Source: Candidatus Woesearchaeota archaeon
GTDB taxonomy: Archaea; Nanobdellota; Nanobdellia; Pacearchaeales; GW2011-AR1
Length of the DNA: 34,788 bases
Assembly: GCA_964365195.1 (NCBI GenBank)
Contig: CAYIPM010000001.1
Span: forward strand, 1-34,788
Reading direction: 5' to 3'
In this document: one piece after another, positions 17,301-26,300 of the stretch
How the letters are laid out: every line of letters starts with the position of its first letter
How positions within the stretch are numbered: the first letter of the stretch is position 1
Notes under the pieces: generated by a model
The model's input: the letters and a program-made list of their open reading frames with translations, nothing else
Told to the model about the DNA's origin: nothing
Database searches by the model: none
Program-made: the position numbers and the translations under genes

Positions 17301-20300
17301 AACAAATTTCTCTAGTGTTACATCATTAGTTGATGCAAATAATTGGACAGTGTATTGCAATGATAGTTCAAACAGATTAAACTCTACCATCGTTAGCTTT
17401 GTGAAAGATTTAACATTTCCTCAAATTGATTTTGATTCTCGAACACCTGCGAATGCAACTGTTACTCCCAATACGACGGTGATTGTGAATATTTCAATTG
17501 TTGAATTATATCCTGATGAAATAAAATATAATTGGAACGGAACAAATTTTACTTTGATGAATGATTCGCTTGTTCTGTTTATGAATATGGATAATCGCTC
17601 GTCGCTGGGGGAGAATGATACACTTGTTGCTGATGTGAGCGGGTATTGTTATGATAATGAGACGGAGATTTTGACACTTGAAGAAGTTGATTGTGGAGAT
17701 TATCTTGAAGAAATTGAGAATGGGAATTATTATGTTGATGATGAAAATATAATTATTGGGAAAAGAAATGAAAATTTAATACAAGATAAAAATTATGATG
17801 GAAGCATTGAGAATGAAAAAAAGAAAGTGGGTTCAAACAGAATAGTTAAACCCAACCGATTGATACACGATTATACTTATTGTAATGATAAGGAGTATTT
17901 AAATATTTCTGTTCATTTGAATGAAAACGTCGGGGTGGCAGAATGGTTATTACAACCGCTTGATACACGGTGCCCTTCGGGGTTTGTGGGTTCGATTCCC
18001 ACCCCTGACGGCTTGTTTGAAAATTCTCAAAAATGTTATATCAAATCATGGAACTATTTTGTTGAATTAGATGGCGATGAGAAAGTTATGACGCTTGATT
18101 CTTCGACGGGCGAGAAAGAATGGCAAGTGCCGACGGAAAGGCAGGAATTTGAAAATAATGGGGAGATGTATTCGATAAAAACTATTGATGAAGAGGGGAA
18201 GGAAGGGGAGTTAGTGGTGAGCGAGAAACATAGGGTTTATACTGCATCTGAAAGTTTTTTTAATTCTGTTGATACTTCTTTAGTTGAAATTCCAAAGCCA
18301 ATGTTAAATAATAAAACTTCATATGTCCATAATTTACAGCCTTTGGATACACACAATGCAATAAACTCTTCATCTTTTGAATGGTTTTTTAATAATTGTT
18401 TTGCCTTTGGTAATGAAACTTTATATTCTTCTAAAGGAACAAATGTTATTCTTTTAAAAATGAGTTGTACAAATGTATCAAATCTTTTTTCAGATAGTTT
18501 TGTTTTAGACAGTAATTCTTTCTTATGTCTTTCAAATTCTTCTTTAAGTTTCAAAGGTGCCAATAAATCAAGTTGGGAATTAAATACAATTTCTAAAATA
18601 TCTCCTTGTGAGATAAGTATTCGAAATAAAATGTTTGAATCCAGAACAACGGTAAGGGGCATCTATAATAATCCTCTTTTGACTAAATCATCATGCATTG
18701 ATTTTTTGACTTTTTCTGATAATTCATCAGCATCTTTTTGGGTAAATTGTGATTCTGATATAATCTCTTTAGCGAGTGTTAATTCCAGTTTATTTGAAAA
18801 TTCTTTGAGTGTTTTTGATAATGCTCGTTCAAATTCTTTCTTAAATACTTCGGGTATTTCTACTTTAATAGATATTTCAGCCATAGAAAATTCTATGAAT
18901 ACTGATTATAAAAAACTTTCTATCGAAGACTTCTCATTGCAGCCTGTTAGTGAAATGTATGAAGAGTTTACTAACAGTAAAGAAATTTATTTCTTGGATT
19001 CAGAAAATAATCCTGTTCGCGTTTCATCAATTGAAAAAATTCCATATTCAGGAAAAATGTATGATGTTGATGTAGAGAATGATATTGTTCTAGTAAGGAG
19101 AAATAATGGAGCTTCTAAAATAAATAATCAATTACTTAAAAATAAATCATCTCTTCTTGATATAAATCCTGTCATGATGGTCAAAATCTTCAAAAATAAT
19201 AGTATCACCTTTTACAGAAAAGAGAAGAACAAAACTTCCAATTTGAACTCTTTTAAAGTTACTCAAATCATGCCTAAGATTCTTGAAATGCATGATAGCA
19301 ATAATGTTCATTTCAGCAATTTGAGTTATCTTTTTTTGTACAGCGAAAAACAAAGGAAAGTCTTTCTTTTTGAGTTTTCTCAAGATGTCGTCAATTTTAG
19401 AAGTGTCTATCTTCATAATGAGTCACAGAATTTATTAAATTCATCTACTGTCATTGATTTGCCTGATAATTTTTTAGAAGATTTTAATTTTTCTACATAT
19501 TTTTCTTTTAATTCAAATTCATCAACAGGATACCAATCGATTTTATCACAGAATTCCTGGTCATCTAATGATAAAGTTCCTGATTGCATGAATTTTTCAA
19601 ATATAGACTGTTTCATTAATCTAATTACTGCTTTTGATAATAATTCAAAATCTAATTTTATGGAATTATCTGATTTAAGTAACATTTCTGCCATAAAAAA
19701 TGATAAGAGTAATGGTTATTTAAGTTTTTCTATTGGAGAGTTTAGTAATCTTATAAATAGTGGGGAAGAGGAGGCAAGCAAAAGAAAAGAAACTAACGCA
19801 GACGATAGTCATTTTGAAAAAGCAAGTTCAGAAGCTTTTGCTTCTGAAGAGACAGGAATTTGGAGCGGAAATAGCAATAATGGGACTGGGGTGAATGGAG
19901 TGAAGGTGAATACGACTGGAAGATATGGGGGAGCATTTACGTTTGATGGTAAGGATGATGTGATAAATACAACTTTATTATTTAATTCCACACAAGGAAC
20001 ATGGTCTGCATGGATTTCTGTTCCGAGTTTTACACTTGAAGGTGGATTTGGTAGACGTGTTTTGCATCAATCAGATAATGCAGGAAATCATGAAATCAAT
20101 TTAAATACTAATGATAATTCACGTGTACGATGGAGTGGTTATGGAACAAGTTATGTATGGAATTTTAACTCTAATGAAACGTTATCAACAAATACGTGGT
20201 ATCATATTGTAGGGACATATAACGGTAGCTATGCGGCTTTATATCTTAATGGACAATTATCTAATAGTTCAACACAAACTGGACCTGTTGGTGATGCAAA

Positions 20301-23300: not shown

Positions 23301-26300
23301 TACTTTTGATGGAATCAATGACTATATCAATTCAACAGTTGTTTCTTCAAATATCAACAACAAAACACTTTCTGCGTGGGTGAAACTTGCGTATCTTGGG
23401 CAGGGCGGCGGTGGCCTTGTTACCGTTCAAACGCTTGACGGAAATATTTTTGACAGCATTGTCTATAATGAGACAGGACTTGGATGGGGGTTTGGCAGTA
23501 ATGTTTATCGCAGAACTGCGTGGTCAGGATTAGTAGAAACATCGACTGATTGGATTCATATTGCAGCAACGTATACGAATGGCAGTTATGTTTTGTATAG
23601 AAACGGCATTGCGATCGTAACGAATACCACATTATCTGTCCTTAATTTTAATAGTAGCACCGCACATGTTGTTATCGGAAGAAGGCATACTACCGGGGGT
23701 GCCAACACATATCTAAATGCATCCATTGATGAAGTGTACGTTTGGAACAGAACTTTATCCGCTTCTGAGGTGTACGAATTGTACGCTTCCAATCTCTATA
23801 AATTCAATCAAACGCAATGGTACTTAACGGTAAATCAATCAAAGAATACGTCGAGCGGGCTTGATAATGGAACATACACCTATTATGCGTATTCTAAAGA
23901 TAATGGGGGGAATGCAAATATGACTGATGTGCGAACGATAACGAGTGATACAGAAGCGCCGAATGCGACGCTGCTTACTCCTGTTAATGCATCTTTTGTG
24001 ACTAATGGATCGCAGAACTTTTCTGCGAACCTGACGGATAATTTGGGACTAAAGAATGCGACGCTGTATGTGTATCCTTCCGCGAATAATTCGTGGTTGG
24101 AGTTTGATGGTGTGGATGATGTTATTAATATTACGCGCAATGAAACGCTTGAGCCCACAAAAAATTTGACAGTTAGTGTTTGGATTAGACATACAACAAA
24201 TACTCGTTATGTTTTGAGTAAACATTATGATGGGGGTGCTTCATCATATGCTATCGATGTTGCTGACGATAATGTTCAATTTTATGTACGCAATGGAACA
24301 GGATCATCACATTTTAGAAATGCGATTTCGGGAACAGCGACGAATGGAAATACATGGCATCATGTTGTTGGAACAGTCAATGATAGTTCTGTTGCGATTT
24401 ACGTTGATTCAGTGTTAAAAGCATCAACGGCGATAACTGGAGCTATTGTGTATAATTCTGGAAATTTAAGTATCGGTAATTTTGTAGATACTCCTGCATC
24501 ATTTAGTTTTAATGGCAGTATCGACGAAGTGAGAATTTATAACAGAACATTATCCTCGACGGAGATAACAGAAATTTATAAGAGTGGATTATTGCGTAAT
24601 GCTTCCATAAATAATACTGGTCTTGTTTCATGGTGGGATTTTGAGCAGGCAACAGGTACAAATCTTGTTGATCAAGTTGGATTAAATAATGGAACTATTA
24701 GTGGTGCAACGTGGAGAAATTTCCATCGACAATTTTTTAGTTTTTCGAGTGGTACGACGAGTGCCCTTGTGGGAACTATCTTTGGATTGCTCGACGGCGC
24801 ATATAATTGGTTTTATCAATTGTTTGATTATGCGGGAAATATATTTACTACGTCGAATTTTACGACGACTATTGATACGAGCGCGCCGCAAATAGATTTT
24901 GTTACGCCGACGCTGTCAAATGGCAGCGCCGCAAACAGCGATTTTTTAGTAAATGTAACCATTAGTGAACAATACTTAAGCAATATTTCGTGGTATTGGA
25001 ATAATACCCGATTTGTCTATGGAGAAAATTTTTCTTTAGTATCGCCAGAAAATATTTCGCGCGGACTTGTCTTGTTATATAATTTTGATAATGAAAGCAC
25101 GTATGGAGAAAATGATACAAATGTTTTTGATTTTAGCGGGTATTGTTATGATAATGAGACGGAGATTTTAACACTTGAAGAAGTTAATTGCGGTGATTAT
25201 CTTGAAGAAATTGAGAACGGGGATTATTATGTTGATGACGGGGAGATTATTATTGGAAAGAAAAATGAAAATTTAATACAAGATAAAAATTATTTTGATA
25301 GAAATCAATTAAAGAATAATGAAAAAGAAAAAGCTACAAATGCAGCATCAATGGTAACGCATAACTTCACGGGTTATGTATCTAACAATGAGAATAAGTA
25401 TTTAAACTTTTCTTTTGATAAAACTGCTGTAGGGGATGATCCAGTAGCATCAGTGGTAATGCGCAGGTCTAATAAACCGAACCTTCACGGGTATCCGGGT
25501 TCGATTCCCGGCTGGAGCGAATCCCCTACTCTCGATAATTTAAAAAATTCTGAAAATAAATGTTATATCAAATCATGGAAATATTTTAATGAATTGAGCG
25601 GCGATGAAAAAGTTATGACGCTTGATTCTTCGACGGGCGAGAAAGAATGGCAAGTGCCGACGGAAAGGCAGGAATTTGATGAAGATAAAGAGATGTACGA
25701 AATTGTGATGGAAGATGCGAATGGTGAGGAAAGTAATTTAGTAGTGAGCGAGAAGCATAGGGTTTATTTTAGTGATTTTGATAATAATATTCCTTTCAAT
25801 CCTAAAATAGTGAATCCAATTAGTTTTCCAGATTCCGATTGTCTTGCTATTATGCCAGAACCTAAGTCTACGCTTATAGCTTTTTCAGGTTTTCCAAATG
25901 AGATGTATAACACGTCTGCTTCTTCATCATATTCCCATGATGATTTGTCTGATTTTCCTATTAATTCTTCCATAGTATCTTTCTATTTTTTAACTTACTT
26001 GAATAAAAAGCAGTTAGGACAAAACCGTCTGTCTGAGACAGCTCTTTGTATGCAACATTTAGATGCTTGTTGTTTGTTACAGGAGTCTTGTCAAACTTTT
26101 TTATCGCAAGAAGAGAACCTACATCTCCTTGTTGAACAATATAAGGATTGTTTAGCGTTTCCAAAATATTATCCTCTTGGCTTTTCATCTCAGGATGATT
26201 ATTGTACATATGTTTCAATTGTTTTTCAGTCAGTCTTATCGGAACACCATTCACTGAAAAAGCAATTTTCATCCGATTATTGCAATAAGAATGAATTATA

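Follow-up and report, generated by a model that had tools for sequence, protein, structure and literature searches.

Short recombination tracts and exchangeable cargo in three intein-like elements of an archaeal LamG-repeat gene

How do three intein-like elements within a single gene come to share some of their segments letter for letter, while other segments, the genes that they carry and the host sequence around them have diverged? The question is raised by a 34,788-nucleotide (nt) stretch of contig CAYIPM010000001.1 from a Candidatus Woesearchaeota archaeon (assembly GCA_964365195.1, positions 1 to 34,788; hereafter the window), in which a gene encoding a giant LamG-repeat surface protein is interrupted by three such elements (E1, E2 and E3). 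An initial annotation, made from the sequence alone, had proposed that the intein scaffold was homogenized between copies by intragenic conversion or homing and that the cargo was replaced. We find that the elements form a recombination mosaic, in which short tracts were copied very recently between the three inteins. The mosaic probably arose through ectopic gene conversion over short tracts of paralogous Hint arms, which would act as homology islands between heterologous cargo, together with the exchange of cargo cassettes. The gene and its elements are as follows.

14320-29787, plus strand: host gene, a single open reading frame (ORF) of 5155 codons encoding a LamG-repeat (Laminin_G_3) surface protein (ORF list, Pfam)
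17647-19872, plus strand: E1, 742 amino acids (aa) from Cys1 to the terminal Asn, followed by Ser+1, with three filled cargo slots (motif positions, conceptual excision)
21769-23232, plus strand: E2, 488 aa (motif positions, conceptual excision)
25144-26520, plus strand: E3, 459 aa (AlphaFold model, Foldseek)

Recombination tracts in the Hint arms

All elements follow one plan, in which three conserved Hint arms (block A/N1, N2 and C) are parted by up to three cargo slots. The arms N2 and C and the tracts shared between elements lie at these positions.

18016-18240 (E1), 22171-22395 (E2) and 25543-25767 (E3), plus strand: arm N2 (block B, ...VVSEKHRVY), pairwise identity 75-81%
18934-19101 (E1), 23020-23232 (E2) and 26311-26520 (E3), plus strand: arm C (region of blocks F and G), pairwise identity 73-87%
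17644-17796 (E1) and 21766-21918 (E2), plus strand: exact 153-nt tract, comprising the -1 Tyr codon, block A (42 nt) and a lineage-specific linker (108 nt)
18082-18152 (E1) and 25609-25679 (E3), plus strand: exact 71-nt tract in arm N2
21888-21958 (E2) and 25263-25333 (E3), plus strand: 71-nt tract with one mismatch (exact runs of 40 and 30 nt), spanning the N1/site-I boundary
18980-19017 (E1) and 26357-26394 (E3), plus strand: exact 38-nt tract in arm C
23146-23177 (E2) and 26437-26468 (E3), plus strand: exact 32-nt tract in arm C

Judged by its divergence, the 153-nt tract is the youngest of the conversion tracts. No other exact repeat in the host gene is as long, the next ones measuring 71 nt (intein) and 53 nt (extein). 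E1 and E2 had been described as identical over their first ~150 nt, with synonymous differences just upstream and with E3 differing at several positions, and each of these observations holds: the exact match is 153 nt long, three synonymous differences fall in the 21 nt upstream of it, and E3 departs at 15 of 150 sites, all within element nt 27-119, five of them altering amino acids. The portion of the tract made informative by the E3 differences is 17673-17765. Between E1 and E2, synonymous divergence (dS) is 0.00 over the 50 codons of N1, compared with 0.59-0.94 in the exteins, 1.18 in arm N2 and 1.00 in arm C, and the tract is therefore far younger than its surroundings. The 150 nt upstream of it are 82.7% identical. 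For the tract, P is 0.00025 when polymorphic sites are permuted in a Sawyer-type test; its 3' end falls exactly where the E1 site-I module turns nonhomologous (17797), and its 5' end lies 3 nt before Cys1. The view of this segment as N1 scaffold fits its first 42 nt, which are Hint block A; the other 108 nt are instead a lineage-specific linker of the slot-I insert.

Which two elements resemble each other most closely depends on the arm: E1 and E2 are identical in N1, E1 is closest to E3 in N2, and E2 is closest to E3 in C. Within N2, the exact 71-nt tract of E1 and E3 is highly significant (permutation P < 5e-5), E2 being ~71% identical there, and the N2 tree joins E1 and E3 with a support of 95/96; from ~18152 on, E1 is closest to E2. 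In arm C, P is 0.0003 for the 38-nt tract of E1 and E3 and 0.004 for a run of seven polymorphic sites shared by E2 and E3 (23056-23065). Site patterns switch abruptly at 17797 and ~18152. The significant short tracts, together with a different closest pair in each arm, bear out the earlier proposal that the mosaic identity reflects recombination. Homogenization of the scaffold as a whole is another matter. It describes the N1 tract and the short tracts, but E1 and E2 are 76-78% identical in N2 and 73-75% identical in C, against 74-88% in the flanking exteins, so that in two of the three arms the scaffold is no more alike than its flanks, the outcome that the initial annotation itself had named as speaking against its proposal.

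Could the assembly have created the identity, through a collapsed repeat or a chimeric contig? The contig belongs to a metagenome bin of 214 contigs, and an exact repeat of 153 nt exceeds common k-mer sizes. We used the Logan contigs (k = 31) of the probable source run (X1) as an independent assembly; they break at both tract ends, and bubble popping can mask single-nucleotide polymorphisms (SNPs). In two runs from another study (X2 and X3), contigs run unbroken through the N1 of E1 with an identical sequence, yet neither run is among the better holders of E2, a pattern that is compatible with strain differences and proves nothing. In the source run, however, the tract forms a separate 152-nt contig (17644-17795) free of variants, with a word depth of 22.8 versus 5.4-8.2 for the flanks (~4 times), from which the E1 and E2 continuations branch, and the E3-type N1 is a separate contig (depth, 5.9) with exactly the 15 expected differences. 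Moreover, the 5155-codon frame is intact across all junctions, an artifact cannot make identity out of sequences that have diverged like the flanks, and a mis-pairing of branches would swap modules and leave the mosaic in place. We consider an assembly artifact highly improbable. In X1, a fourth upstream context (coding ...MVDVSK|Y), present in no contig of the bin, is joined to N1. Taken with the depth of N1, this context indicates that further N1 copies exist in the sample.

The same data bear on whether the tract is kept invariant because N1 has a function at the DNA or RNA level that is under purifying selection, for example as a binding site, processing signal or antisense terminator. N1 reaches its high depth in the source run with no variant contig, it is identical in contigs of the two runs from the other study, and it lies just upstream of a tRNA-like gene and its promoter. 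But E3 tolerates 15 substitutions in N1, including the five that change amino acids, and the 108-nt linker is unalignable between species of the genus (~50% identity) and missing entirely from elements without a site-I insert. Folding of the 153-nt tract as RNA is no better than that of shuffled sequences on either strand (z of -0.7 and -1.0), and we dropped a structured-RNA constraint for that reason. Selection of this kind would also leave unexplained the other tracts, which pair different elements, and we regard it as quite improbable.

Intein identity, host repeats and the question of homing

The elements start with a Cys (CYDNETEILT...) and end in ...WSGN followed by Ser. In 19 of 19 aligned family members, C1, S202 and H205 (the S-x-x-H of block B), N459 and S460 (Ser+1) are invariant; the penultimate residue is Gly, not His. 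Pfam found no match at E <= 0.01 on the sense translation of whole elements, so their identity is taken from profile-to-PDB searches and a structure model. Profile searches with the N and C halves against PDB sequences rank inteins first (AceL NrdHF and gp41-1, E of 0.03-0.04; KlbA, E of 0.0018; PI-PkoII, E of 0.0066). An AlphaFold2 model of E3 reaches a per-residue confidence (pLDDT) of at least 90 in residues 1-20, 135-210 and 385-460, which make up a Hint fold, with disordered inserts between them. Foldseek matched this model to intein, bacterial intein-like (BIL) or hedgehog Hint domains in all but 2 of the 50 matches listed, the best being the AceL NrdHF intein (TM score of 0.71, normalized by target; probability, 1.0). 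When Cys1 to Asn is excised in silico, all three host junctions align without gaps to an uninterrupted LamG repeat of the same protein. By motifs and predicted fold, E1 to E3 are Hint/intein-like elements that belong to a family of inteins devoid of endonuclease, and they would be expected to undergo protein splicing.

We rejected an alternative view in which DVSGY ahead of the element and WSGN at its end form a target-site duplication: WSGN|S ends every family member, even in hosts that lack the motif, and the excision of Cys1 to Asn restores the motif. The last four codons of the elements (W-S-G-N; 19861-19872, 23221-23232 and 26509-26520) resemble the host motif D-W-S-G of unoccupied LamG repeats (16138-16149), and BLAST aligns 16138-16195 with 23221-23278 at 84% identity. 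This likeness may be due to chance or may be a trace of the family's original home site.

With a profile of the elements, we detected the family in 14 of 36 further species of the genus; none of 24 genomes from other genera in the order had it. We extracted ~20 further elements from these relatives, which brings the family to ~23 members. Relatives come in two forms, a simple one, in which block A runs straight into ...GWKxF..., and a composite one, in which an insert of ~130 codons (slot I) follows block A; E1, E2 and E3 are all composite. In genome G030, inteins (L017:2957 and L017:6830, contig G030:C15) sit directly after the ALGE of a homologous LamG lead-in (...MNFxNxxALGE...), 11 residues upstream of the position used in the window. 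In other relatives, the intein occupies quite different extein contexts, and the post-intein Ser-Asn/Asp moves along with it.

The host gene belongs to a groundwater metagenome bin of 1.04 Mb with a 33.7% GC content. The bin encodes ribosomal protein S4e, which among the control genomes occurs in the archaeal ones only; no 16S rRNA was found in the bin. All extein pieces match Pfam Laminin_G_3 (E from 1e-67 to 5e-20), and the three interrupting elements all lie at one motif (..D-x-S-G-Y|S-N-N-G-T) of paralogous LamG repeats. Two further features of the gene bear on its history.

16135-16164, plus strand: unoccupied insertion motif DWSGRGNNGT in an upstream LamG repeat of the host gene
20411-20753 and 23777-24119, plus strand: extein stretch best conserved between host units 1 and 2 (87.6-87.8% identity at the nucleotide level, 94.7% at the aa level, dS of 0.59)

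Taken at its divergence, the second of these dates the duplication of units 1 and 2. The gene had been described as a super-repeat with nearly identical extein stretches; the repeats do exist, but their identity was overstated, being 87.8% in this stretch and 80.4% between 21263-21533 and 24608-24878. Unit 3 is a third copy only loosely, with an aa identity of just 24-33% to units 1 and 2 in the parts compared, and the topology of the host repeats is clear: ((U1,U2),U3). For units 1 and 2, the dS values allow for inteins having been copied along with the repeat, a possibility that the initial annotation had set aside. The arms of E3, by contrast, are 74-90% identical to those of E1 and E2, versus 44-61% for its exteins, so that E3 was probably copied into an already diverged repeat.

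Gene conversion with co-conversion of flanks is the textbook route of intein spread. In classical homing, an endonuclease would cut empty LamG sites and repair would copy the intein along with short tracts of extein. Such a process would agree with the placement of E1 to E3 at the same motif of paralogous repeats, with the arms of E3 being closer to E1 and E2 than its exteins are, with the E1-E2 identity that climbs toward the junction on the upstream side (67, 75, 83 and then 92%) and with a 153-nt tract beginning within 3 nt of Cys1. However, no homing endonuclease, LAGLIDADG, HNH or other, was found in any cargo slot of the ~23 elements. Homing would also copy the entire element with its cargo, whereas the recent identity covers tracts of at most 153 nt, and the empty motif at 16135-16164 is still unfilled in the same gene. 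The relatives' elements sit at many unrelated extein positions, the displaced insertion in G030 among them, and the upstream gradient tracks how well the LamG lead-in is conserved at the aa level, the nonsynonymous divergence (dN) being 0.06 there and dS 0.73. With no endonuclease found, no recent copying of whole elements and a persisting empty motif, the earlier suggestion of homing as the source of the mosaic lacks support, and we find it unlikely.

Cargo cassettes and the origin of the mosaic

The arms enclose the following cargo.

17797-18015 (E1), 21919-22170 (E2) and 25294-25542 (E3), plus strand: site-I modules (slot I holds a linker and a tRNA-like gene on the sense strand)
17928-18012, plus strand: tRNA-like gene of E1
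18237-18662 and 18663-18884, minus strand: E1 site-II cargo, a PIN_2 toxin and a 73-aa partner, antisense to the open host frame (Pfam)
19147-19694, minus strand: E1 site-III cargo, between blocks F and G, a ParE-like toxin and a 93-aa partner
22392-22983, minus strand: E2 site-II cargo, a DUF5615 and DUF433 pair (Pfam)
25764-26314, minus strand: E3 site-II cargo, DUF2283 and a 117-aa RelE/barnase-like nuclease partner (Pfam)

The cargo genes had been called unrelated between copies, as indeed they are: four unrelated families of predicted antisense toxin-antitoxin (TA) genes occupy the three slots. Slot II, the usual endonuclease position of inteins, here holds antisense TA operons. The host frame stays open across all eight antisense genes, for which synonymous recoding with the genome's codon usage gives a chance of 0.0001-0.6 per gene and a product of ~1e-13. 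We found no free-standing close copies of the cargo genes in this genome (best matches, 25-46% aa identity), which indicates that the cassettes were not recently captured from local TA loci.

Among the ~20 further elements, slot II carries antisense TA cargo with two exceptions, and a single element lacks an open sense frame. PIN_2 is the most frequent cargo of the relatives, which also carry DUF5615/DUF433, DUF2283 and ParE pairs. Across elements, slot II holds four TA families, and the ParE cassette is found in slots I, II and III of different elements. The left cargo boundary always falls right after ...CATAGGGTTTAT (23 of 23 elements). The family exhibits the pattern of exchangeable cassettes, with unrelated inserts between the same flanks and the same insert in different slots.

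The trees of the arms tell of separate histories. Cargo type requires 7-8 changes on the N2 and C trees (22 elements), and genome labels require 13, versus a mean of ~16.4 when shuffled, and are clustered beyond chance. In approximately unbiased (AU) tests, two N2 sister pairs from two other genomes were rejected as sisters in C (P values of 1.3e-5 and 0.0012); three more groupings were not significant. Between species, arms are up to 81-88% identical and one cassette is 80-95% identical, versus 65-70% for ribosomal genes. That cassette is the ParE-like one in slot III of E1, whose counterpart in G030:C15 adjoins arms that are 60-77% identical (window 19130-19730 versus L017:7910-8518); the ribosomal-protein operons of the two genomes provide the baseline of 65-70%. 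The cassette thus moved between species far later than the species split, which points to a recent lateral transfer of the ParE-like cassette alone. The G030 element pairs it with E2-type DUF5615/DUF433 cargo. The E3 cargo is 77.7% identical to that of an element from another genome (G031), and the E1 site-I module, which does not align with those of E2 and E3, has its nearest relative in another species (76%). The replacement of cargo, as first proposed, is well supported by the four TA families in the same arms, the conflicting N2 and C trees and the excess similarity of cassettes between species.

These similarities raise the possibility that recombination with incoming foreign copies, through lateral transfer between strains or species, made the mosaic as well. 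Parts of the elements are more alike between species than ribosomal genes are, every cargo, like the E1 tRNA module, has its nearest relatives in other species, and the fourth N1 context is in the source sample and outside the bin. The longest tracts, on the other hand, pair resident copies at 100%, well above any match between species, and the N1 linker is specific to this genome. We consider this distinctly unlikely as the source of the mosaic. Foreign copies surely contribute to the cargo; in that respect, they complement short-tract conversion and do not exclude it.

In the mechanism that we favor, the three elements would be old paralogous members of the genus-wide, endonuclease-less intein family. 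Their arms would form homology islands of ~150-225 nt, each bounded by nonhomologous cargo or dissimilar extein, and since heterology bounds the arms, host homologous recombination would work on them piecemeal. On the one hand, ectopic conversion between copies would overwrite an arm wholly or in part and halt at heterology, yielding the 153-nt tract of E1 and E2, the 71-nt and 38-nt tracts of E1 and E3 and the tracts of E2 and E3. On the other hand, exchanges in two flanking arms would swap the cassette between them, some cassettes coming from other species. The halt at heterology would explain why the 153-nt tract has its 3' end exactly where the E1 slot-I module turns nonhomologous. Conversion among copies in unlike exteins would stay within the island, and with a donor in an unlike extein (N1 copies of this kind exist in the sample), the 5' end would fall at the edge of the intein. 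The scheme would also cover the patchwork within N2 and C, the conflict between the N2 and C histories and the promiscuity of the cassettes. We infer that host recombination, rather than a function encoded by the element, is responsible, and likewise the direction of each conversion.

Several points weigh against this explanation. The 5' end of the 153-nt tract lies within 3 nt of the intein boundary although the upstream exteins of E1 and E2 are 83-92% alike; plain conversion between E1 and E2 does not predict such an end, so that a third donor or a mismatch-limited heteroduplex is needed. The window offers three copies only, all tests rest on arms of 150-225 nt, and the permutation test disregards rate variation along the arms. 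Tree support is modest save at a few nodes, and the groups for the AU tests were picked after the trees were seen. Contig-level data, from both the metagenome-assembled genome and Logan, can pop single-SNP bubbles, and the exact identity may hide one or two differences. In addition, part of the mosaicism could stem from incoming foreign elements instead of intragenic conversion.

More tentatively, and with some doubt on our side, the inteins may be a modular mobile platform of a kind not described before. Their Hint arms would be stretches of homology that can be carried about and that let TA operons and a tRNA-like gene insert, swap and cross species within giant surface-protein genes left unbroken. 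The TA cargo would replace the role of the endonuclease by punishing loss of the element rather than driving its gain, and the tracts would be the footprints of this traffic.

Details of slot II deserve mention. Its boundaries are built into conserved intein codons (18205-18240, 22360-22395 and 25732-25767, and ~30-60 nt before each SLQP, e.g., 22995-23015). The stop of the antisense toxin lies in the complement of ...GTTTAT (R-V-Y), and on the antisense side, E2, E3 and several relatives have a TATA-like ...TTATATAAATCTTT... (L-Y-K-S-F) ahead of the C arm. Two relatives stand apart. At L013:11303-13162 (G026:C13), a sense, in-frame protein of ~620 aa with Schlafen AlbA_2 and HATPase_c_4 domains (and a region like a winged helix-turn-helix) occupies the endonuclease slot instead of an antisense TA operon. 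At L020:6068-6260 (G026:C3), the sense frame stops soon after ...DIVLVRR, which probably means that this copy has been truncated or is in decay, or else that its host gene is.

Relation to known systems and tRNA-like inserts

Canonical class 1 inteins carry a homing endonuclease, and some genes hold several of them, for example, haloarchaeal MCM (PMC10643990). The elements described here resemble them in the Hint fold, Cys1, the S/T-x-x-H of block B, the terminal Asn and Ser+1, and also in an insertion site at a conserved motif and in the tolerance of a big insert between blocks B and F. Unlike them, they lack an endonuclease, and the slot holds predicted antisense TA operons, transcribed separately, across which the host frame merely stays open. 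They also differ in two further insertion slots and in a Gly for the penultimate His. Their host is a repetitive, nonessential-looking surface protein, their insertion positions are many and vary among relatives, and recent copying has covered pieces of inteins, never whole inteins. BIL domains offer another likeness, as multicopy Hint domains without endonuclease in large, fast-evolving surface or secreted proteins, and their structures are among the top fold matches; the family described here departs from them in its invariant Ser+1, the restoration of the host motif upon conceptual excision, its archaeal hosts and its gene cargo.

Short-tract ectopic conversion, or concerted evolution, is known in duplicated tuf genes, rRNA operons and repeated surface-antigen cassettes. 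The mosaic shares with these cases exact tracts of tens to hundreds of nucleotides between diverged paralogs, abrupt breakpoints and trees that conflict from segment to segment. In contrast to them, the converted units here are the arms of a predicted mobile protein-splicing element, and nonhomologous cargo bounds the tracts, making homogenization block-wise and not gradient-like. Conserved flanks around exchangeable cassettes are also found in integrons, in polymorphic toxins with their C-terminal tips and immunity genes and in the mosaic modules of phage tail fibers. As in these systems, conserved arms enclose unrelated, exchangeable cargo, the same cargo occurs in different positions, and cargo is more alike between species than core genes are; unlike in them, we saw no integrase or att sites here, the arms encode segments of a Hint protein, and the cargo has to keep its opposite strand free of stops.

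In the open-access full-text literature, we found no account of inteins that carry antisense TA genes, nor of conversion that acts on inteins arm by arm. As a process, such recombination is ordinary; what appears to be undescribed is the substrate, a multislot intein family that has cargo but no endonuclease and exchanges cassettes across species. In the usual picture, an intein is a whole unit, which its own endonuclease spreads and which later decays. Here, by contrast, a family without endonuclease is present in many copies, evolves piecewise through what would be host recombination and trades embedded cassettes across species. If this is true, conserved splicing segments double as built-in recombination arms, which would explain how selfish cargo lives within the essential-length frames of the very large surface proteins that archaea with small genomes typically have. 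The elements would be a natural instance of a gene-within-intein design, and their arm-wise mosaic implies that whole-element intein phylogenies are misleading in such families.

Finally, the tRNA-like insert of E1 closely resembles a free-standing gene of the same genome (G000:C2:6722-6805), which forms a clean class-II-type cloverleaf with a long variable arm, G73 and the anticodon GAU; an ordinary 76-nt tRNA-Ile(GAU) is also present, on contig C149. The free-standing gene and the intein copies have an upstream TATA-like box (...TATTTAAAT...) and a partial duplicate of their own 5' half. The three intein copies in the window retain all stems via compensatory changes, and the "anticodons" of the relatives are GAC, CAA and CTC.

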